The notes under the pieces are model-generated. The model had not been told where the DNA came from and ran no database searches. It saw only the letters and a list, made by a program, of their open reading frames with translations. From positions 1 through 41,704 of the forward strand of contig JBKDBI010000306.1 of the NCBI GenBank assembly GCA_046314695.1: a DNA stretch of 41,704 nucleotides, read 5' to 3'. The translations under genes and the position numbers were made by a program. Below, one piece after another: positions 1,126-38,816 of the stretch; position 1 is the stretch's first letter; each line of letters opens with the position of its first letter. Source of the DNA: Bacteroidota bacterium (GTDB taxonomy: Bacteria > Bacteroidota > Bacteroidia > NS11-12g > UBA955).

Positions 1126-3675
1126 ATGAGCATTGTCACGGACGACGTGCAGCAACAACAAGCGGAACGCAACTTTCACTGGGAACGCGCGGCGGTGCAG
1201 GACGGCATCGACCGCTACTGGCAGGGCGTGAGTGACGCACAGAAGCGTGACCAACTCGCCATGTCACCCGTGTGGCGACCGATCATCGCTCTCATGCACG
1301 AGCAGGCGGCGGTGGGTTTCTCGGCTGCACGCAAGAGCGTGGAGTCTGGCCGCTGGCGCGAAGAACTGCAAGGCATCATCGGCCTTGTCAGTGACGCGAA
1401 ACTGGGTGCCATCACGGCCAACACGATGGTGTCGATGTGTGCCCGCGCAGAGGAACTGTTTATCGGTGAAGACGACGCAACCTCACGCCGCGCCGCACCC
1501 ATGCGATCAGTCACGCGAGAAGTGGGCAAGGTGATTGTGGCCGCAGCCGGACACGCACTCATGGGTGCTGACCTTGCCGACCAGCGCGAACTCGCCAGTG
1601 AACGCAAGCGTCTGGCGAAGGAAGGTGAGTACGAATACGACTGGTCGCAGGATGAAGATGTGGCGTTGCTCTATCGCCTCAGCGCAAGTGGCAAGGTGCC
1701 ATTGCACAGTCGCGTCATCACCGAACTCCGCAAGAGTGATTACGGGTCGCAGATGAACGCCACCGAGCGTTTCCTGCACACCGTTGGCGAGTGGGCAATC
1801 GGCGTGGCGTGGGGCGCGATGGTGCTGCCACAGGAACGCAAGGACGAAAGCGGCGAGGTGGTCACCGAGTACGTGCGTCCGTTCCTGCGTGTCTCCATCA
1901 AGAACGGCAAGCGTCGCGCCATCCCCGCCGTCACGTTTACGTCGGAAGTGGCGAAGATGGTGGACCGCCGCCATGTAAGCCGCGAGGCTGGGCACCCCCG
2001 GTTTCGTCCGCTGCTGACAGAGCCGAAGAAGTGGGCGTGTGACGAGCATGGCCGCATCTCGCAGCGTGGCGGATACCACAGCATCAACGCGCCGATGATT
2101 AGCGCGACGACCGCAGCCCAGCGCACGCTGTTGCGAGAAGCGTCGATGCCGTTGGTGGTCAAGGCGATGAACGCCATGAACAGCCAGACGCTCATGCTGT
2201 TTGATCCGATCCTGTCCATGCAACGCGAGGCGATGAGTCGCGGCATGGAAGTAGGCAAGCTCCCCCCGTTCTACCCGCCCGACAAGCCGCCGCGTCCGGC
2301 AGCCGCAGACGAAGACAAGGACATCAACCGCAAGTGGCGCAGCGCGGCCCGCAAGTGGTGGGAGAGTGTGTACGAGATTGTCGGTCGCCAGGTCACGCAC
2401 GCGGAGTGCTTGCGACTGGGTGAAGAAATCGCGTCGCAGAATGACGGCCTGTTCTGGCAGGACTACGTGCTGGACTTCCGTGGCCGTGCATCGGTGCGGT
2501 GTGCGTCACTCACGCACTACGGCTACGACGCGGTGCGTGCGTTGACAGTGAGTGCGGTAGACAAGCCGATGACCGAGCGTGGTATGCGGTGGCTGAAAAT
2601 CCACGCCGCAAACTGCTGGGGCAAAGACGGGCTGGACAAAAAGAGCTTCAACACGCGGGCCAAGTGGGCAGACGACAACGCGGCCAACATGGAGCGGGCC
2701 GTGCGGATGGGCCTAGATGACGAGTGGTGGCAGCAAGCCGACGACCCGTGGCAGTTCTGGCAGGCGTGCGTGGGCCTGTGCGAGCCGGACAAGTGGGGGC
2801 GGCGCATCTTCGTCGGGCGTGACGGCACGTTCAACGGGATGCAGCACTGGGCGGCAATCACTCGCGACCCAGTGACGGCGGCGATGGTCAACCTCTGCGA
2901 GAGTGACGACGCAACCGACCCGCGTGCGCCGTATGCGGAGGTGGCTGCTGCCGCACGACAACTGCTCCCGCCGCAACTTGCGAAACTGGTCACGACCAAG
3001 GTTGCAAAGCCGCAGGTCATGCTGAGCGTGTACGGCGTGACGGCCTACGGCACGACCAACAACATGCACGCATCGCTGATGAAGGAGCATGGGCTGTCTG
3101 ACGCGCTGGCAAGCAAAGTGCGCAAGGCCATCGTCATGGTGGTGCAGAAGGTCATGGAGGAGCGGATGGGTAACGCCGTCGCCATGATGGAGTATGTGTC
3201 GCGGTCGGCGAAGGCAGTGGCGGATACGGGTGTGCTGCCTGCCTGGTCCACGGTTCTGGGATTCCCCGTGGTGCAGCCGTACATGTCGGTCCACAAGAAC
3301 GTGAACGTGCTGGGCAAGCAGTTGGCACTGGTAGACCACGCCAGCCCCAAGCCGCGAGTTCGCAAGAACGGCAGTGCGGCCAGTCCCAACTTCATTCACA
3401 GCGTCGATGGTGCCCATTTTATGCTGACGGCGGCAGACCACGCCGCGGCGGACATTCCCATGATCGGTCAGTTCGACCGCTTCTGTTCGCTGCCCGCAGA
3501 CGTGGACGAGAGCGCGGCCATCACCACGGCGGCGTTCGTTGAGACGCACAAGGCCGACCCGATGGGCTTGTTTGTGGAAGCCTGCCGCCAGCATGTGCCC
3601 GACTTGCCCGACCCGCCCGCACGCGGAAACTGGGACATCGAGCGCGCCGCCAAAGCCACCTACGCCTTTAGTTAG
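1126..3675 (+). CDS. Single-subunit T7/mitochondrial-type DNA-dependent RNA polymerase
   Basis: 849 aa; DFRGR, WLKIHAANCWG, motif A DGTFNGMQH, motif B K-x7-YG (AKPQVMLSVYG), SPNFIHSVDGAH, motif C QFDRF, C-terminal YAFS like T7 FAFA. Confidence 0.96.
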   Translation: MSIVTDDVQQQQAERNFHWERAAVQDGIDRYWQGVSDAQKRDQLAMSPVWRPIIALMHEQAAVGFSAARKSVESGRWREELQGIIGLVSDAKLGAITANTMVSMCARAEELFIGEDDATSRRAAPMRSVTREVGKVIVAAAGHALMGADLADQRELASERKRLAKEGEYEYDWSQDEDVALLYRLSASGKVPLHSRVITELRKSDYGSQMNATERFLHTVGEWAIGVAWGAMVLPQERKDESGEVVTEYVRPFLRVSIKNGKRRAIPAVTFTSEVAKMVDRRHVSREAGHPRFRPLLTEPKKWACDEHGRISQRGGYHSINAPMISATTAAQRTLLREASMPLVVKAMNAMNSQTLMLFDPILSMQREAMSRGMEVGKLPPFYPPDKPPRPAAADEDKDINRKWRSAARKWWESVYEIVGRQVTHAECLRLGEEIASQNDGLFWQDYVLDFRGRASVRCASLTHYGYDAVRALTVSAVDKPMTERGMRWLKIHAANCWGKDGLDKKSFNTRAKWADDNAANMERAVRMGLDDEWWQQADDPWQFWQACVGLCEPDKWGRRIFVGRDGTFNGMQHWAAITRDPVTAAMVNLCESDDATDPRAPYAEVAAAARQLLPPQLAKLVTTKVAKPQVMLSVYGVTAYGTTNNMHASLMKEHGLSDALASKVRKAIVMVVQKVMEERMGNAVAMMEYVSRSAKAVADTGVLPAWSTVLGFPVVQPYMSVHKNVNVLGKQLALVDHASPKPRVRKNGSAASPNFIHSVDGAHFMLTAADHAAADIPMIGQFDRFCSLPADVDESAAITTAAFVETHKADPMGLFVEACRQHVPDLPDPPARGNWDIERAAKATYAFS

Positions 3676-4330: not shown

Positions 4331-4540
4331 ATGGGAGCGATTTTCAGTCCCCCTTCTGCGCCGGACCTTGCCCCCATTCAAGACCGCGACCCCACAGAAC
4401 TCGGCCCGGTCGAGCAGGCCAACCTTCGCCGTGAACTCGCCCGCCAGCGAGCCAACACCACCGTCGCCAGCCTGACCATCCCTCGCGATGTGCCTGCCCA
4501 GCAAGCCGGTGTGGGCACGCGCCCGCCCTCCACCACATAA
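4331..4540 (+). CDS. Small virion assembly protein (T7 gp7.3-like by position)
   Basis: 69 aa, MGAIFSPPSAP start, immediately upstream of the portal; AAGGA RBS. Confidence 0.55.
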   Translation: MGAIFSPPSAPDLAPIQDRDPTELGPVEQANLRRELARQRANTTVASLTIPRDVPAQQAGVGTRPPSTT

Positions 4541-7704: not shown

Positions 7705-8835
7705 ATGTCACTGTACACAGTGCAGAATCCTGCACAGGGTCAAACTGCTGACCCCCGCGAACTGCTCGCCAAAGTCCTTCACGGCATTCAAGAGCCGATC
7801 ACGCCCAACCTGATGTTCTACGGACAGAGCATCCCCGGCGTGAAGATCATGCCCGCTGGTCAAGGCGGAAGTCTGCAAGTCATCTTCAACTCGGTTATGA
7901 CCCCGGCCAGTGCGGTCCGCGCGCTGGAAGGTGTCGGCCAGTCGGCCATCACGGCTCGGCGCGAATACCTGTTTGCTCGCAACCAGGAGTTCCTGCGCCA
8001 GACGCTGCGATACACCGACACCGACATGGAAGACATTCCCTCGCTGCTTCTGCGTGTCCAGCAGGACCGCGTTGCTGCCGAGAAGAAGGTGTTCCAAGCA
8101 CTTGACCGTCAGATCATCCTCGCAGCGTGTATCGCGGCGCGTCAGCCCGCCCTCACGCTCACGCAGGACGGCCAGAACCTCGTCAGCCACTTGGGCGGCA
8201 CGCGCGTGACCAACACGACCGGCCAGACCACGGCAGACGCGGCCATTCTCAACCGCTACCCCAGCAGCACGACCGGCTTTGCCAACGCTGTTGCTGACCT
8301 TGAAACGCTCGTGCGCAACATGGGCGACAAGGGTGTGGATGTGGAAGGCAGCATGGTGTGGGTCCACCAGCAGTTCCTCAACGCTCTCCGCAGCGGCAAG
8401 GATGCCAACTACTTCAGCATCGACTTTGCTGGCGGTGCTGGCAACAGCATCCCGTACATGAAGATCGGCACCATCGCGGGCCTGCGTATCGGTCCCGCGC
8501 TGCGCACCTTCAACTTCATGGGCACCGAAGGCCACCTGCCGGGCATCGACCTGAGCGGCACGGCGGTCAACGCGGCCTATCCGGGCATCACCAGCGACCT
8601 TCGCGCCAACTTCGCTCCCTCTGCTGGCACGGGCACGCCCGTCGCCATCGTCATGGGTCCGAATCCCAGCAACTCCACGGCAGAAGCGGTCCACGTTGCG
8701 GTTCACCGCGACTTCCGCGCGGATGCCTTGGAAGACCCGGAACTGTTCTTCACGGGCGCGCAGTACTCGATGCGGGCGACGGTCTTCCCGGCCAACCCCT
8801 CGTGCGTCGGCACCATCGAAGTCACCAACAGCTAA
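7705..8835 (+). CDS. Major capsid protein
   Basis: 376 aa after the scaffold; strong RBS; downstream terminator; GGSLQV, ALDRQI and KIGTIAGLRI resemble gp10-family features. Confidence 0.82.
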   Translation: MSLYTVQNPAQGQTADPRELLAKVLHGIQEPITPNLMFYGQSIPGVKIMPAGQGGSLQVIFNSVMTPASAVRALEGVGQSAITARREYLFARNQEFLRQTLRYTDTDMEDIPSLLLRVQQDRVAAEKKVFQALDRQIILAACIAARQPALTLTQDGQNLVSHLGGTRVTNTTGQTTADAAILNRYPSSTTGFANAVADLETLVRNMGDKGVDVEGSMVWVHQQFLNALRSGKDANYFSIDFAGGAGNSIPYMKIGTIAGLRIGPALRTFNFMGTEGHLPGIDLSGTAVNAAYPGITSDLRANFAPSAGTGTPVAIVMGPNPSNSTAEAVHVAVHRDFRADALEDPELFFTGAQYSMRATVFPANPSCVGTIEVTNS

Positions 8836-8854: not shown

Positions 8855-8889
8855 ACCCCGCGCGGTCACCTTGATCGCGCGGGGTTTCT
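8855..8889 (+). terminator. Terminator after the capsid gene (T-phi-like position)
   Basis: accccgcgcggtca-cct-tgatcgcgcggggt then TTCT. Confidence 0.7.
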
Positions 8890-31213: not shown

Positions 31214-31352
31214 CCGGTGTGCGTCGTTGGCCTGTGCAGCCAGCGTTGTCACTCGCAAGTGTCGTGTTCTCAGGTAGTTGCGTCATCGGTGTGCGTTTCG
31301 GTGTGCGTTTCATCGCCTGGATGCCGCTCGTTCGCGTTCGCCTGGATGCCGC
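31214..31352 (+). repeat. Short direct repeats in a low-complexity region
   Basis: cggtgtgcgtttc x2 in tandem plus cggtgtgcgt at 31215; tcgcctggatgccgc x2. Confidence 0.7.
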
Positions 31353-31512
31353 ACACCCGTTGCGAGTCGCATGCGTGTGAGAGAGCCGATGCCATCCCTG
31401 CCTTTTTCCTCATGCTGTCCTGCTCGCTTGCGTCACACACACCGCGCGTCTGCTCGCGTTCGTTGGCCCTGCGGTTGTCGCGATCGCGCTGTCTGTCGGT
31501 TAGCATCATCAT
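31270..31512 (-). CDS. Doubtful low-complexity ORF
   Basis: GAGGA upstream, but it lies within the repeat-rich region. Confidence 0.25.
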   Translation of the reverse strand: MMMLTDRQRDRDNRRANEREQTRGVCDASEQDSMRKKAGMASALSHACDSQRVCGIQANANERHPGDETHTETHTDDATT

Positions 31513-31753
31513 CCATCCTCAGGCACATGCACGCACACACCAGAGAGCCTAGCCATGTGTGTTGTGTGAGCTGCTCGCGTTGGTGTGCGTGTGCGTGTGT
31601 CTGGGGTTACCAGTTGCGTCCGTGGTCTTTCATGTTCGTTACCACTAACTAATAAACAAGAGGATACGAGGGCAAAACTCTGAATTCCACCCTTGTCTAC
31701 TCACACGAAAGGGTGAATCTGTAAGAATATGATGCAGACTGTTTACAGTGTGC

Positions 31754-31782
31754 TTGCACTACTCCGATGGTTGTGGTATACT
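31754..31782 (+). promoter_or_regulatory. Host sigma70-type early promoter
   Basis: TTGCAC - 17 bp - TATACT with extended -10 TG; AT-rich upstream; predicted +1 near 31788. Confidence 0.8.
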
Positions 31783-31787
31783 ACTGC

Positions 31788-31837
31788 ACCGCTAGCGATG
31801 TGCTAGCGACTCGCGCAAACGAGTAGGAGAATGACCA
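31788..31837 (+). repeat. Structured intergenic module A (leader half only)
   Basis: cgctagc-GATGT-gctagcg, actcg-CGCAAA-cgagt, AGGAGAATG. Confidence 0.85.
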
Positions 31838-32047
31838 ATGTCCACCGCTAATTACGTTGTCTGTGTTCGCCGTGTTGAGGGTGCCGAGTGGGTTGCCGAC
31901 TCTGGGCACGCCACCAACAAGGATGCGTATGCACGTGCTGACAGCCTTAGCCCCACGGCTTACGACGTGTGCGTGCTGACCGCTGACCTCGCCCGCCTTA
32001 TGCGTGTTGAGGTTCCGCCTGTGGGCTGGTCCTACGTCACCTGCTAA
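31838..32047 (+). CDS. Early hypothetical protein
   Basis: 69 aa; AGGAG RBS. Confidence 0.75.
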   Translation: MSTANYVVCVRRVEGAEWVADSGHATNKDAYARADSLSPTAYDVCVLTADLARLMRVEVPPVGWSYVTC

Positions 32048-32137
32048 CCCTCTCGCCCACACCCGTGCTACCGCGCCGGTGTCGGTTTCACCTACCAACG
32101 TGGTAGGCTCGCGCAAACGAGTACAGGAGAATGGATC
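32048..32137 (+). repeat. Structured intergenic module B
   Basis: acacc-C-gtgc-TACC-gcgc-C-ggtgt, TTTCA, cctacc-AACGT-ggtagg, ctcg-CGCAAA-cgag, AGGAGAATG. Confidence 0.88.
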
Positions 32138-32473
32138 ATGGCTAAAGCGAAGGTTTCCAGCAAGATCACGTATCAGCAAGCGGCTGCGGCTATGTCGCTG
32201 GAGCGCGATCGCGTTATCCGTGACGCACAATCGTCTATGCGTGCTTCACAGTGCTTCACGGATGCAAAGGTCTACGGATTCCCGTTCGGAGTCGGCAAAG
32301 ACTACCCGGCAACCAGAATCCTCGGCTGGTGCCGCCCCGACGAAGACATTCCCGCTAGCTGTGAACTTATCGCCCGCATTCCGGTGTCCAATCTTTCCGA
32401 GTTGCAAGCTGTGCGAATGCTTGCCGACAAGATGCAGTCTTTCCCCGCATTCAACTGTGAGAAGATCGCCTAA
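32138..32473 (+). CDS. Early hypothetical protein
   Basis: 111 aa; AGGAG RBS. Confidence 0.75.
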   Translation: MAKAKVSSKITYQQAAAAMSLERDRVIRDAQSSMRASQCFTDAKVYGFPFGVGKDYPATRILGWCRPDEDIPASCELIARIPVSNLSELQAVRMLADKMQSFPAFNCEKIA

Positions 32474-32553
32474 GCCCCTCGCCCACACCCTACCGGGTCT
32501 GGGCCAGTTTCCGCCCGCTGTGGGCGGTGTGCGCAAACACACTGGAGAATGGT
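32474..32553 (+). repeat. Structured intergenic module C
   Basis: gccca-C-accc-TACC-gggt-C-tgggc, AGTTT, ccgccc-GCTGT-gggcgg, tgtg-CGCAAA-caca, GGAGAATG. Confidence 0.88.
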
Positions 32554-33342
32554 ATGGAACTTCGTGATTTTGTCGGTATGCGTGTGCGATGGTCAGATAT
32601 GGCGAACTACCGGACTGGCGTTGTTTTCAACGTCCGCAAGCCGGATCGCACCGTCTACACCATCGGCGCGACAATGCAATCTGTCGCCATCGTGCTCGAT
32701 GTGGTCTGGGATGATGGTCTCATCACGCGGGAGAGTCCGCTAGACCGCTGGGAAGTCCTGCCGGGCTTTGCTGACGCGGACGAAATCGCCAAGATGCTGC
32801 ACGATGCAGACCAGAAACAAGCGCAGAAGGAAGCGGAAGCCCGTGCAGAGAAGGCAGAAAACGCCACTATCCGCGCGTCGCTCCCCACGCTTCACCCACA
32901 CTTGCTGACAGTGCAAGCCCGCAAAGACTGGGCACCCGGTCGAATCGCTGCCGAGAACATCCGGCGCGAGTTGAAGCGACTGTACCCGAAGGTGAAGTTT
33001 TCGATTCGCTACAAGTCCTTCTCGGGTGGCAACTCTATTGACGTTTCATGGGTCGATGGTCCCACATCCGCCAGCGTAAACGCCATCATCGGCAAGCACG
33101 AATACGGGTCCTTCGATGGGATGACGGACTGCTACAACTACGACAGCGAATCGGATCGAACATGGGGCGATGTGTTCGGCAGTGCGAAGTACGTGCACGC
33201 TTCACGCACCCATACCATCGACGCAGTACGCGCGGCGTGGAAGTCCAAGGGCTTCAACGCTGACGAAGTGCCAGCTACAGACGCTTGGCAGTCTGACTTG
33301 TGGCAGCACATGTTCCTCGCGTGGTCTGAGACTGCTTTCTGA
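32554..33342 (+). CDS. LPD29 domain-containing protein
   Basis: Start re-called at ATG 32554; AAENIRRELKRLYPKVKFSIR...SIDVSWVDGPT...GSFDGMTD...FGSAKYV. Confidence 0.8.
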   Translation: MELRDFVGMRVRWSDMANYRTGVVFNVRKPDRTVYTIGATMQSVAIVLDVVWDDGLITRESPLDRWEVLPGFADADEIAKMLHDADQKQAQKEAEARAEKAENATIRASLPTLHPHLLTVQARKDWAPGRIAAENIRRELKRLYPKVKFSIRYKSFSGGNSIDVSWVDGPTSASVNAIIGKHEYGSFDGMTDCYNYDSESDRTWGDVFGSAKYVHASRTHTIDAVRAAWKSKGFNADEVPATDAWQSDLWQHMFLAWSETAF

Positions 33343-33431
33343 CCTACCACCCCTCGCGCGTTCCCCAACGGGACCGCGCGGGATTCACTGGGCGATGTGC
33401 CCACACATACTACCGCACACAGGAGGTTTAC
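33343..33431 (+). repeat. Structured intergenic module D
   Basis: accacccctcgcgcg-T-tccc-CAAC-ggga-C-cgcgcggg, ATTCA, tgggc-GATGT-gccca, AGGAGG; third hairpin absent. Confidence 0.82.
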
Positions 33432-33731
33432 ATGGGAAAGTACCGCATCATCGACGTTTCACTCAGTTATTCATACATGGGCAATCCGCATCCGTCTGTG
33501 GTTGCGGCATGGCGTGACATTGTGGAGGGCTTGCGTCTGAATGGTCGCGTTGTTGAGGTGACTCAGCAGCACATCGACGATGCAGACGGTGACGACGATT
33601 CGGCGGAGTTGCAAGCTGTGGCTGACATGGCAGAGGACGAAGCCCGTGCTGAATACGTCGCCAAGTTCCCCGCGTCAGATTGTTCGATGATGGTTGTCGA
33701 AGTGGCGCACCTTGAAAGCACGCCTGCCTAA
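33432..33731 (+). CDS. Early acidic hypothetical protein
   Basis: 99 aa; AGGAGG RBS; DDADGDDDS tract. Confidence 0.75.
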   Translation: MGKYRIIDVSLSYSYMGNPHPSVVAAWRDIVEGLRLNGRVVEVTQQHIDDADGDDDSAELQAVADMAEDEARAEYVAKFPASDCSMMVVEVAHLESTPA

Positions 33732-33852
33732 CCCACCCACGCCGCACACCCCAACGGGTCTGCGTCGTCTTCCCTGCCCGCTGTGGGTAGGAAACAAGTT
33801 GCCCCCGCGTCACGCAAATGACCGGGGGCGTGTCCAAAGTCGGAGAAAGACT
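33732..33852 (+). repeat. Structured intergenic module E
   Basis: cgca-C-accc-CAAC-gggt-C-tgcg, CTTC, cctgccc-GCTGT-gggtagg, gccccc..gtca-CGCAAA-tgac..gggggc, GGAGAA. Confidence 0.85.
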
Positions 33853-34317
33853 ATGGCGACGAACAATAGCAAGCCCACCCCTCGCGTCAATGAAGATGCC
33901 GAACGCTTTGACGAAGTGACGGGGGGCTACGACATGGTTGACCATGACCGCGCGGCGAAGCGGATCATGGCGGATCTGCGGAAGATGCCCGAACGGGTCG
34001 AGGGGCACACGCCGGGGCCGTGGCGGTCGCACGGGGAGGCCGTGTGGTCTACCCACGAATCTGTCAGTGGCCCCGTCACTAAGGGCACCCGCACTAACCA
34101 TGTGTGCGCCGTGTCTTCGCGGTTGAAGATGCCAGAGGCCGAGCGTGCCGCCAACGCCCGCCTCATCGCCTCCGCCCCTGACCTGCTGGCGGCGTGCCAA
34201 CGGGTTCACAAGTACCTCAACCACCCCAACGACGGCGCGGGGCGTGCGACGGTTGAGCTTTGCCTGTCCGAACTGTCTGCCGCCATCGCCCGCGCGACGA
34301 ATGGGGGTGGGATGTGA
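33853..34317 (+). CDS. Phage protein of the HTPGPW...ANARLIAAAP type
   Basis: Start re-called at ATG 33853; HTPGPW and ANARLIASAPDLLAAC motifs. Confidence 0.75.
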   Translation: MATNNSKPTPRVNEDAERFDEVTGGYDMVDHDRAAKRIMADLRKMPERVEGHTPGPWRSHGEAVWSTHESVSGPVTKGTRTNHVCAVSSRLKMPEAERAANARLIASAPDLLAACQRVHKYLNHPNDGAGRATVELCLSELSAAIARATNGGGM

Positions 34318-34505
34318 AGTGCAACCTTTGCGGATACGAGATTTGGCGCGGCGGCACCTGCCAGCGCACGTGCAAGTATGACAAGAAAACCGGCCACTTC
34401 AACCGTGGCAAGACGTGCCACATCGGGTGCGCCGAGAAGCATTACCAAGACCACCACGACACCAAGAATCCTCGCTCGCTCGCGTCAATGCAGCTCACCA
34501 AATAA
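34314..34505 (+). CDS. Small Cys/His-rich protein
   Basis: GTGA overlap; CNLC...CQRTC...CHIGC..H. Confidence 0.6.
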   Translation: MKCNLCGYEIWRGGTCQRTCKYDKKTGHFNRGKTCHIGCAEKHYQDHHDTKNPRSLASMQLTK

Positions 34506-34591
34506 CCACCCCTCGCGCCCCACTTGACCGTGCGGCGCGGGTTTCATCGGCCCCGGATTGCAGGGGTGTGCGCAAACACAAGGAGAATGGA
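34506..34591 (+). repeat. Structured intergenic module F
   Basis: ccacccctcgcgcc-C-cac-TTGACC-gtg-C-ggcgcggg, TTTCA, degenerate second hairpin, tgtg-CGCAAA-caca, AGGAGAATG. Confidence 0.85.
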
Positions 34592-34837
34592 ATGGAAACG
34601 AATCACAAGCCCGGAACCGTGCGCCGTCTGTATTGCAACTGCTGCGGAAGTGCGAATGGTCGCTTCGCCCAGCACTGGAACCAGGACACCGGATACGGCA
34701 TCTGCCGCCCGTGCGTGCTGAAGTGGTACCGTGGCAAGGGCCACACCGAGGCCGACATCGAGCAACTGTTTGGCAAAGAGGGTGTGAACTGGGCCAACGC
34801 CGAGCAATGGGCTGAGATCGAAGCTGCTAACGCCTGA
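34592..34837 (+). CDS. Small zinc-finger-like protein
   Basis: Start re-called at ATG 34592; CNCCG...QHWNQDTGYGICRPC. Confidence 0.7.
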   Translation: METNHKPGTVRRLYCNCCGSANGRFAQHWNQDTGYGICRPCVLKWYRGKGHTEADIEQLFGKEGVNWANAEQWAEIEAANA

Positions 34838-34894
34838 CATACCACCCCTCGCCCCTCGCCTACCCGCGCGGGGCGGGATTGAAAGGAGAACAGG
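34838..34894 (+). repeat. Structured intergenic module G (first hairpin only)
   Basis: accacccctcgcccc-T-cgc-CTACCC-gcg-C-ggggcggg, ATTGA, AAGGAGAA. Confidence 0.8.
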
Positions 34895-35125
34895 ATGAAG
34901 GACGACGAATTTCAGTCGGTTCCGGCACACGTCTACCCCGGCAAAGTGACGGTGGTAGTTGCAAGGCTGGACGAAGCGAGCGGCAAGATTCATTGGCAAC
35001 GCCTCGTGTATGAGGAGGAGGTGTTTCCGAAGCACATGGCATTGGTGAAGGTGGATGTTGAGGAGGCGATGATGAAGGTGATGCGTCGAGTGCTACCGCC
35101 AACGGGAGGCACCACCAATGCCTAA
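34895..35125 (+). CDS. Hypothetical protein
   Basis: 76 aa; AAGGAG RBS. Confidence 0.7.
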   Translation: MKDDEFQSVPAHVYPGKVTVVVARLDEASGKIHWQRLVYEEEVFPKHMALVKVDVEEAMMKVMRRVLPPTGGTTNA

Positions 35126-35372
35126 CTCCCTACCCCTCGGCCCCGCCATGCAACTCGCTCGCATCACTGCCAACTACCACCCCACCAACAAGGGTGAACT
35201 GGCGAACCTTCACAAGATCGAACGACGCGGGCGTGACATGCTGCTGTCAACCCTCGTGGGTGCCATGAGCAAGTACGGCGGCGCGGTCTACATCGTGACC
35301 GCCAAGGGCACACACGTCCGCATCAGCGGTGTTGAGGACACGCTCGGCGCAGAGAAAGCGGGGCAGCCATGA
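35118..35372 (+). CDS. Hypothetical protein upstream of the integrase
   Basis: 84 aa; GGGAGG RBS; overlaps both neighbours. Confidence 0.65.
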   Translation: MPNSLPLGPAMQLARITANYHPTNKGELANLHKIERRGRDMLLSTLVGAMSKYGGAVYIVTAKGTHVRISGVEDTLGAEKAGQP

Positions 35373-36457
35373 TCCTCGTCACACCCCGTCGCAACGGCGC
35401 GAAGGGCTGGCGTGCCTGCTGGAAGCAAGCCCAGCCGGACGGCACTGTCCGCGAAGTCTACAGGCACATCGGCGACGTTACCAAGGCCAAGGCCCAACGG
35501 GTCTGCGCGGACATTCAACGCGAGCTTGACGAATCACCCCTCGCTGCGCCGTCGTCACTGTCGGCATGGTCGCGGCGGTTCTTTGAGTGCTGCGGGTCGC
35601 TGTCTGAGGACACCGAAGGGCTGTACACGCTGACCTTCACGCGACTGCTGGAACACTTTGGCGATGTGGAGCTAGGCGAAGTCACGGACGCGGACGCGAG
35701 GAGCTTCCTGACGTATCTGGAGGCACTACGCAAGCCGGACGGTACAGCTCTGTCCTCGTCGTCGATCAACCGGCACCTACGCGATGCGCGGCGGATATGG
35801 GCTATCGCTGTCGAGGCGAAGCTCTGCCGAGAGAACCCGTTCGCGTCGGCTGCGGCGCGTGAGGGGCGGGCGAAGCACAAGGTAGGGGTAGCGTTCACCC
35901 GCTACGTGCCCCTCTCCGAACTTGCCATGCTGCTGAAAGCGTGCCCCAGCGAGGACTGGCGGCTGGTGTTCCAAGTCGCACGGCTGGCAGGGCTGCGGCG
36001 CAACGAGATCGAGCGGCTGGAGTGGGGGAACATCGACCTGCAAGCCCGCACTATCACGGTCGAGGGCGATTTCGAGGACGGCGCATCGCGCGAGGGCACC
36101 AAGAAACGCCGCCGCGTGGTGCCCATCGTGCCCGAGTTGTACGACGTGCTGGCGAACCACCCCTCGCGGACGGGGCTGCTGGTGCAGGTCAACCAGAGCA
36201 ACTTCGAGCGTGACGCGCGCGGCATCGTGGAGCGGAGCGGAGTGGAGGACTACGGCAAGCCCCTGCACAGCTTGCGGGCGAGCTTTGCGAATGACATGAT
36301 GGACAGACACCCGATCCAGGACGTTGCGGAGTGGTTGGGCCACTCGGTAGAGGTCGCGATGCGGCACTACAGGCAACGGGAGCGGGCGAGTAGAATCGAC
36401 GCAGCCGTGAGCGTTCCGCTGTCAAAATCACATCGCACAACCCTAGCGATTGCATAG
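35369..36457 (+). CDS. int: Tyrosine recombinase / phage integrase
   Basis: GLRRNEI (R), TKK (K), HSLR (HxxR), LGHS (H), RHY (Y); SAM-like core-binding region ending in ENPF. Confidence 0.93.
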   Translation: MILVTPRRNGAKGWRACWKQAQPDGTVREVYRHIGDVTKAKAQRVCADIQRELDESPLAAPSSLSAWSRRFFECCGSLSEDTEGLYTLTFTRLLEHFGDVELGEVTDADARSFLTYLEALRKPDGTALSSSSINRHLRDARRIWAIAVEAKLCRENPFASAAAREGRAKHKVGVAFTRYVPLSELAMLLKACPSEDWRLVFQVARLAGLRRNEIERLEWGNIDLQARTITVEGDFEDGASREGTKKRRRVVPIVPELYDVLANHPSRTGLLVQVNQSNFERDARGIVERSGVEDYGKPLHSLRASFANDMMDRHPIQDVAEWLGHSVEVAMRHYRQRERASRIDAAVSVPLSKSHRTTLAIA

Positions 36458-38631: not shown

Positions 38632-38672
38632 CCCCTCCCTCCCCGCGTTGCCGGTGGGCGCGCGGGTGGGTT

Positions 38673-38765
38673 GACTCGGAAGCGAAATCAGGCCTCGCAC
38701 TGCAACGGAAGCCAGCGTTCGCTGAGTGGTTGCGGAGGATGCGGGTTCAAATCCCGCCCGAGTCA
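38673..38765 (+). ncRNA. tRNA-like RNA with a non-canonical extended anticodon arm
   Basis: Acceptor GACTCGG/CCGAGTC plus A; D arm GCGA/TCGC; T arm GCGGG-TTCAAAT-CCCGC; 5-nt variable loop; no 7-nt anticodon loop. Confidence 0.75.
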
Positions 38766-38816
38766 TTTCCTCTCTCTCCTTGCTGGCGGCATCCGCATGT
38801 CCCCGCCAGCACCTCG

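Follow-up and report, generated by a model that had tools for sequence, protein, structure and literature searches.

An uncultured phage contig of 41,704 bp (C306, one contig of a 510-contig metagenome bin), analysed here over its entire length and hereafter called the window, carries an early array of nine small open reading frames (ORFs) followed by an integrase gene, in which seven structured spacers, modules A to G, stand in front of the successive ORFs (Table 1). Since the window encodes a single-subunit RNA polymerase, virion genes recognised with PHROGs (portal, scaffold, tail and internal virion protein), a large terminase and a tyrosine integrase, the phage is a T7-like, probably temperate podophage. 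Only ORF3 (LPD29/LPD30) and ORF5 (phrog_1273) of the array matched a family. A first-pass annotation, made from the letters alone, had held that the ORFs lying between the spacers are unrelated to each other, and all-vs-all blastp indeed found no mutual match at E<1e-3 among the array ORFs of the window. ORF8, ORF9 and the integrase gene (34895-36457) close the array without further modules, and no strong match to the model of hairpin 1, described below, occurs downstream.

Folding and reading of the modules gave a common order, composed of a stop codon, a C-rich leader, hairpin 1 (H1), a short W-U-U linker, hairpin 2 (H2), hairpin 3 (H3), GGAGAA and a start codon. The first-pass annotation had ascribed this layout to all seven spacers; the order is borne out by folding, while three spacers are incomplete, A being devoid of H1, D of H3 and G of both H2 and H3. 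The motifs common to all modules are the leader CCACCCCTCGC on the left and GGAGAAT on the right. The Shine-Dalgarno motif GGAGAATG has four copies in the window, all within the array (1.03 expected; 2 of 100 shuffles reached four). Beyond the modules, exact leader copies are located within ORF5 and within the integrase gene, and a copy with one mismatch, at 4476, is likewise within coding sequence. A pairing between leader and Shine-Dalgarno appears in several minimum free energy (MFE) folds; it was rejected as an idea, since the leader bases involved vary from fold to fold and base composition by itself would yield such pairing. Folding z-scores of the seven whole spacers are modest (-2.0, -2.8, -1.5, -3.7, -4.0, +0.2 and -1.8).

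Table 1. Features of the window, with the early promoter, modules and ORFs of the array listed first (UTR, untranslated region; aa, amino acids).
Feature	Position	Strand	Details	Basis
Early sigma70-type promoter	31754-31782	+	TTGCAC-17 nt-TATACT	Sequence reading, alignment A6
Module A (ORF1 5' UTR)	31783-31837	+	H2 31790-31808, H3 31809-31824, GGAGAATG 31826-31833; no H1	Fold, motifs
ORF1	31838-32047	+	69 aa, no family	
Module B	32048-32137	+	H1 32055-32086 (core 32059-32082, C.C), H2 32091-32107, H3 32108-32121, GGAGAATG 32126-32133	
ORF2	32138-32473	+	111 aa, no family, no homologue among relatives	
Module C	32474-32553	+	H1 32478-32507 (48.7 bits), H2 32512-32526, H3 32527-32542, GGAGAATG 32544-32551	
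ORF3	32554-33342	+	262 aa, LPD29/LPD30 domains; 88% identical to L061 slot-2 ORF	Pfam
Module D	33343-33431	+	H1 33353-33382 (U.C, 65.4 bits), H2 33389-33403, no H3, AGGAGG 33421-33426	
ORF4	33432-33731	+	99 aa, no family; missing from L062	
Module E (long form)	33732-33852	+	H1 33739-33768 (49.9 bits), H2 33773-33791, extended H3 33801-33829 (CGCAAA 33813-33818)	
Module E extra small hairpin	33838-33852	+	GGAGAA in loop	
ORF5	33853-34317	+	phrog_1273; conserved in close relatives	
ORF6	34314-34505	+	Overlaps ORF5; unique	
Module F	34506-34591	+	H1 34512-34541 (63.1 bits), H2 34550-34567 (8-nt loop), H3 34568-34581, GGAGAATG 34582-34589	
ORF7	34592-34837	+	81 aa, unique	
Module G (short form)	34838-34894	+	H1 34848-34877 (U.C, 61.4 bits), GGAGAA 34885-34890; no H2/H3	
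ORF8	34895-35125	+	Unique	
ORF9	35118-35372	+	Conserved small protein	
Tyrosine integrase	35369-36457	+		Pfam
Single-subunit RNA polymerase	1126-3675			PHROGs
Perfect 14-bp hairpin, then UUCUCACA	8855-8885	+	Just past presumed capsid gene (7705-8835); 23.3 bits, z -5.2, -27.1 kcal/mol	

Relatives of the array were recovered in two clades. Integrase-based searches yielded a close clade, composed of L061 (a complete 47-kb IMG/VR record, also designated G002) and the metagenome fragments L062-L066, all with the same array type and the same promoter in front. Pattern and model searches yielded a second clade, composed of G001 (58 kb, complete), its near-copies L211, L220 and L222, and L221, L212 and L213. 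The integrase queries found no relative in a genome-contig collection (two scans) and only L061 in IMG/VR. A loose H1 pattern returned mostly chance matches, L070 being the sole real one among the matches listed, and a pattern joining H3 to the Shine-Dalgarno returned 59 isolated chance-level matches and zero arrays in IMG/VR. No cultured close relative was found among 50,697 phage records, in which the best RNA polymerase matches are 26-27% identical and blastn with the array gave a single 58-nt, chance-like match. Near-identical DNA exists in freshwater metagenomes, 18 runs containing at least half of the sampled words and 20 runs from 9 studies containing some part of the window; one of these runs may be its source.

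The single sigma70 promoter that the first-pass annotation had placed upstream of the array was found there. Alignment A6, in which the window is compared with L061, L066 and G001, shows no variation in the CTTG and TATACT parts of this promoter across the four phages. A consensus promoter scan of the + strand between 29500 and 41704 reported no site and missed the array's own promoter too, because the -35 of the latter matches at only three of six positions. None of the modules, checked by reading, has a TATACT-like -10, leaving the promoter at the head of the array as the sole conserved one.

H1 is a GC-rich hairpin of about 30 nt on the sense strand. In 22 copies its stem begins 3-11 nt past the stop codon (median 8.5), and the MFE hairpin is exactly 30 nt long in 13 of them. 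Two such 30-nt forms exist, in which 8 bp and a mismatch are followed either by 4 bp and a 4-nt loop or by 3 bp and a 6-nt loop. The 12-13 stacked positions of the stem, mismatch included, are almost wholly G-C. The mismatch reported by the first-pass annotation in the six H1 copies of the window (B-G) is present in all of them, as a 1x1 C.C or U.C lying 3-4 bp below an A/C-rich loop of 4-6 nt. In a model-based alignment of 29 copies, C.C is seen 17 times at the mismatch, U.C 5 times, C.U twice and C.A once (25 copies in total), the remaining copies having the mismatch one register off (three copies) or a U.G (one copy).

Selection on this structure, proposed at first from the window alone, gains support from covariation once relatives are added. 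In a MAFFT alignment of 20 copies, taken from the window and four related loci, 92.4% of the cells pair, compared with 69.1% after shuffling (0 of 500 shuffles as high) and 27-51% when partners are slid, and 10 of the 12 pairs have changed on both sides. The 29 copies, drawn from 9 sources, give 92.9% versus 70.3% and both-sided change at 11 of 12 pairs in an alignment that was made to the model and so leans towards structure. RNAalifold also arrives at this helix, with no pairing in the mismatch columns. Furthermore, 23 of the 29 copies have a U.G at stem position 2, which is compatible with folding of the sense strand only.

Downstream of the stem, the H1 tail always contains TT and reads TTTC (15 copies), ATTG (5 copies) or ATTC (2 copies), and in 26 of 29 copies two G's are directly followed by A/U-U-U. 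Hairpin energies range from -10.3 to -24.9 kcal/mol (median -18.1) and the 8-nt tail contains 2-5 U (median 3) in 22 copies. On the other side of the hairpin, a C follows the stop codon in 19 of 22 cases (UAAC or UGAC). For comparison with H1, the phage's clearest predicted terminator-like site is the hairpin at 8855-8885; its position is that of the T7 terminator Tphi, and its tail resembles the H1 tail.

The H1 model found five strong matches in the window, all in the array (a shifted lower stem holds the score of module B down to 15.6 bits), and six in each of the complete relatives G002 and G001. By contrast, nothing above 29 bits was found in the rest of the bin, and 100 related genomes held no match at E<=0.001. 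The H1 family thus occurs only in such early arrays, in two phage clades. The view that the element is not a recognised, named one held up against Rfam 15: at the gathering threshold the sole match in the window is a transfer RNA (tRNA; 38673-38765), and at E<=5 the interval 31700-35400 gave three snoRNA chance matches, far under their thresholds.

For H2 and H3, loops were tabulated from MFE folds over 31 modules; alignment A5 set H2 out of register, hence the use of folds rather than pair counts for this hairpin. H2 loops of modules A-E read GAUGU, AACGU, GCUGU, GAUGU and GCUGU, in agreement with the RHYGT consensus noted earlier, and module F has an 8-nt loop. Across the survey, a hairpin stands at the H2 position in 26 of 31 modules, and its loop is GNNGU in 12 of these 26 (counting L061_c), on unrelated stems and in both clades. 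Five H2 hairpins have a GGAUUGCA loop, on two different stems. The CGCAAA loop of H3, which the first-pass annotation had called invariant, is found in A, B, C, E and F on three stems; it varies in relatives, where the loops CGCUAA, UGCUAC, AUGCAA, GUGCAA, UUGCAC, UAGCAC and UGCA also occur, and its invariance is therefore limited to close relatives. The hexamer occupies the H3 position in 12 modules, forming the MFE loop in 8 of those 12, and a GCA/GCU core, seen in nearly all H3 loops, is the only general feature.

The three-hairpin architecture is conserved, with length variants on either side. Four short, orthologous modules have no hairpin past H1, and in the long modules H3 is extended to 10-15 bp. 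In five long modules the Shine-Dalgarno purines lie in the loop of a fourth small MFE hairpin. More generally, the one to three hairpins downstream of H1 leave the Shine-Dalgarno unpaired or in a loop. Kissing between the H1 and H2 loops was considered and rejected, CAAC/GUUG fitting only about 3 of 10 modules read by eye. Outside the arrays, an otherwise unrelated IMG/VR contig of lower GC (L068:7309-7330) contains 22 nt identical to the H2 of module F. This stretch, too, is intergenic, with another hairpin before it and a gene starting shortly after it; chance could by itself produce an exact match of 18 nt in a collection of the size of IMG/VR.

Comparison of the arrays by blastn showed conserved modules within non-homologous flanks. 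Module F is 96.6% identical to its counterpart in L061 and 96.9% in L062, between unrelated flanking ORFs; module G is 91% and 98% identical to the same two relatives, again next to unrelated ORFs, and the H1 of module D is 98% identical to that of L062. All-vs-all blastp identified as shared only ORF3 (with L061), ORF5 and ORF9 (with L061, L062 and L066) and the integrase, the other slots being filled by unrelated ORFs; in addition, a homologue of ORF1 sits in slot 6 of L066 (3200-3559; 32% identity, E 4e-6). Mixed arrangements were also observed. In L062, a hybrid module joins a D-type H1 to an E-type H3 and ORF4 is gone, and in L221 a module matching the fifth of G001 stands before the ORF that follows the sixth of G001. 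A contig of the DNA run X15 has about 200 other letters in place of ORF3 between 32550 and 33346; the replaced stretch begins directly behind GGAGAAT and ends where the leader starts, and run X16 contains loose ends matching this replacement. Exchange boundaries hence lie at both module edges, and the cassette-like behaviour envisaged by the first-pass annotation is seen both in the relatives and in a metagenome variant, which swap whole ORFs between conserved modules. In sum, sense-strand hairpins under selection are confined to early arrays and bound the replacement of ORFs: the modules stay while the ORFs change.

The array and the integrase are much more alike among the window, G002 and G001 than the core genes are. 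RNA polymerase and large terminase (TerL) are respectively 41% and 49% identical between G002 and the window, and 26-34% and 30% between G001 and the window. By comparison, the integrase gene is 75-91% identical to those of the relatives at the DNA level, and its protein 73%, while the DNA of the modules is 91-97% identical. Because integrase and modules are far more similar than RNA polymerase and terminase, these comparisons suggest that diverged phages recently exchanged their early region.

Two RNA runs of one study (X19 and X20, available as contigs only) contained three contigs matching the array, located at 32102-32475, 33577-33734 and 34654-34837. All three end 0-3 nt past the stop codons of ORF2, ORF4 and ORF7 (32475, 33734 and 34837), where DNA contigs run on through the modules. 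Such contig ends may correspond to true RNA ends, or else result from weak read cover over H1 or from a branch point in the assembly graph. The RNA libraries may also have contained some DNA, and parts of the array without RNA-contig cover are not evidence.

Other observations concern the surroundings of the modules. About 440 nt of non-coding sequence with CA/GT-rich runs (31314-31753) precede the early promoter and may represent a genome end or a regulatory region; within it, 31521-31721 is 92.5% identical to L066:91-291 (blastn). ORF5 has conserved ends and a variable middle, where metagenome contigs diverge with loose ends, and the 41 nt at its 3' end (34279-34319) are 100% identical to L061 although the two ORF5 proteins are 43% identical. 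A tRNA-like gene of 95 nt, unusually long (38672-38766), was assigned by ARAGORN to tRNA-Phe (GAA) and scores 42.6 bits with the Rfam tRNA model; searched in the rest of the bin, it gave just a 25-nt match.

Taken together, we consider it somewhat better than an even bet that the spacers form one family of promoterless, structured intercistronic modules of an early operon, serving both as expression sockets and as homology patches. The operon would be transcribed by the host RNA polymerase. H1 would provide the upstream cistron with a weak attenuator and a protective 3'-end hairpin, and H2 and H3 would form a standard 5' UTR that insulates the next cistron and exposes its ribosome-binding site, so that any ORF placed in a slot would be expressed alike. 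The socket idea is supported by module A, where the 5' end of the array has H2, H3 and the Shine-Dalgarno and nothing else, and by the five long modules whose Shine-Dalgarno purines lie in a hairpin loop. As DNA, the CCACCCCTCGC leader, GGAGAAT and the near-identical orthologous modules could act as patches of homology for recombination between co-infecting relatives, and the divergence of stems among the modules of a genome would keep deletions between neighbours in check. An efficient terminator is unlikely for H1, because its U tract is short, none of its copies in the window passes a terminator scan and six serial stops would silence the integrase and the other downstream genes; weak attenuation, protection of 3' ends, or both, appear to fit better.

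Several points weigh against this interpretation. The terminator scan, which requires 5 T in 8, passed 0 of the 6 H1 copies of the window. Many H1 copies are paralogues or orthologues, so that the covariation counts above do not represent independent events. The RNA contigs stop before H1 and not after it, a point of little weight as it comes from one study. Above all, insulation leaves unexplained why H1 keeps a mismatch, why H2 loops are GNNGU in 12 of 26 cases and why H3 loops share GCA/GCU, all of which hint at a reader; the idea of a specific reader therefore stays alive.

Among the alternatives, processing punctuation comparable to that of T7 early mRNA is unlikely in our assessment. A host endoribonuclease, for example RNase E, would cut at G-G↓W-U-U 3' of H1, leaving H1 as a protective 3' hairpin on the upstream and H2 as a 5' hairpin on the downstream product. 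The two G's and A/U-U-U next to most H1 copies fit the core motif RN↓WUU reported for RNase E in Salmonella; in the part of that study used here, the motif is defined in single-stranded segments (PMC5222698), whereas both G's are stem-paired in H1. T7 provides a precedent, since cleavage at its intercistronic hairpins leaves 3' hairpins that are stability determinants, according to the relevant section of a review that also gives 22 bp, or two helical turns, as the idealised Escherichia coli RNase III substrate (PMC3867540), to be compared with the 12-13 bp of H1. G-C pairs are antideterminants in the RNase III proximal box (PMC1540722), a criterion that applies to the E. coli enzyme only, and H1 is almost all G-C; helix length and G-C content thus both speak against RNase III. 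The absence of H1 from module A is expected under processing if H1 belongs to the upstream cistron. No usable ends could be taken from the RNA contigs. A role as promoters or terminators for the single-subunit RNA polymerase of the phage itself, instead of as signals for host machinery, appears very improbable. Like T7-type promoters, the leader CCACCCCTCGC shows conservation of sequence, and the post-capsid hairpin at a Tphi-like position shares a G-G-G-U-U-U-C tail with H1. Against this, the leader motif was not found upstream of middle or late genes, which led us to reject it as a phage promoter, and has its extra copies inside coding sequence; furthermore, the array precedes the polymerase gene and has a sigma70-type promoter at its head. 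T7 Tphi was likewise rejected as a relative of H1, the H1 model giving -0.7 bits on its sense strand and only its loop resembling some copies.

A dedicated trans-acting reader is quite improbable, in our estimation. H2, H3 and the H1 mismatch would then bind a protein or act on RNA polymerase, resulting in antitermination through H1 or in translational control, much as the nut and put RNAs of lambdoid phages mediate antitermination, the former through a defined boxB loop with a cognate N protein, the latter, in HK022, as a two-stem RNA acting directly on the polymerase. The GNNGU and GCA/GCU loops, kept on unrelated stems in two deeply diverged clades, would be consistent with such a reader, as would the mismatch kept in 28 of 29 H1 copies and the H2+H3 pair lying directly behind the promoter, upstream of every H1. 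However, for the specific reader postulated by the first-pass annotation, blastp disclosed no candidate protein common to every array: sharing of ORF5, ORF9 and the integrase is confined to the clade of the window, with none detected in the G001 array, and ORF1 and ORF2 are not conserved. In addition, H3 loops have no fixed register across relatives, no Rfam family matches, and reading of ORF1 and ORF2 disclosed no arginine-rich, N-like ORF. A bolder proposal, to which we give a small chance, is a new RNA punctuation code in which a host or phage reader of the mismatched H1 and of the GNNGU and GCA loops would cut, stabilise or read through at gene boundaries, each slot being a plug-and-play socket. 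Under this proposal the motifs would have spread between phages with core genes of only 30-49% identity, and the element, rather than the genes, would then be the conserved mobile unit of the early region. Finally, it is extremely improbable that folded H1, with its unpaired base, is an integron-like substrate of the adjacent tyrosine recombinase moving ORF cassettes. This idea draws on the unrelated promoterless ORFs lined up behind one promoter and beside such a recombinase, and on imperfect hairpins with conserved outer arms and variable tops. Yet with TIGR02249, the model of integron integrases, the enzyme reaches 21.9 bits where the cut-off is 265, and its gene lies downstream and co-oriented. 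Modules do not travel with their ORF, F being the same between different ORFs and ORF3 being replaced with both of its modules kept, and the boundaries fall at both module edges instead of one crossover point in H1. The 30 nt of H1 are also far fewer than those of attC sites, which are much longer. This integron-like reading is thus disfavoured, neither the integrase nor the sites bearing the marks of membership.

Small phage genes of unknown function, many of which probably target the host, are stored mainly in the early regions, and the way such genes are gained, lost and correctly expressed is poorly understood outside the PeSLs of T4-like phages. The promoterless modules favoured here would represent a second, structurally different solution, based on RNA structure and not on promoters, in an uncultured clade of freshwater, T7-like temperate phages. 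They constitute a candidate new RNA motif family with real covariation, whose H1 covariance model could serve as a marker for hypervariable early-gene arrays in metagenomes. They may also offer a natural design for insulated and swappable cistrons, of interest for synthetic operons.

As far as limited keyword-based literature searches go, the module has not been described, and four known systems invite comparison. Integron attC arrays similarly combine promoterless ORFs, one promoter, imperfect hairpins conserved in shape and an adjacent tyrosine recombinase; they differ from the present array by the type of integrase, by the size and position of the sites and by the modules staying in place as ORFs change. 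The RNase III hairpins of T7 also belong to a T7-like early operon read by the host polymerase, where hairpins with an internal irregularity lie between early cistrons and could stay on the upstream 3' end. H1 is about half the length of the substrate and nearly all G-C, and is accompanied here by extra 5'-UTR hairpins. The SAS/ESAS of Cluster K mycobacteriophages are, in the portions of their description relevant here (PMC3203893), repeated motifs over the ribosome-binding site of non-structural genes, often with an inverted repeat in front and kept before unrelated gene families. For ESAS, the authors found in those portions little support for RNA hairpins, whereas compensatory changes support hairpins in the present modules, and motif, phage type and host differ as well.

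Of the systems described so far, the PeSLs of T4-like phages come closest. In the excerpts of two studies drawn on here (PMC2839356 and PMC4122927), PeSLs are composites of a promoter and a stem-loop located between the ORFans of T4-like myoviruses, where modular shuffling takes place. Like the present modules, these short motifs lie with their stem-loop between a stop codon and the next Shine-Dalgarno or start, cluster in regions of small early genes whose function is unknown, and coincide with the boundaries of insertions, deletions and replacements between related phages; at our modules, too, indels and replacements are bounded by the motifs. Each PeSL copy has a strong sigma70 promoter, according to the same excerpts, whereas one promoter serves the whole array here, and the PeSL stem-loop was shown to terminate, whereas H1 combines a stable stop-to-start hairpin (at the median energy given above) with a short U tract. 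The modules further differ by up to four hairpins in a fixed geometry, by their kept mismatch and loop motifs, and by their occurrence in podoviruses with a high-GC genome. Judged from sequence comparison, what appears new relative to PeSLs is thus a promoterless element with a fixed multi-hairpin anatomy supported by covariation, and what seems to be shared is its position, its context and its role in shuffling.

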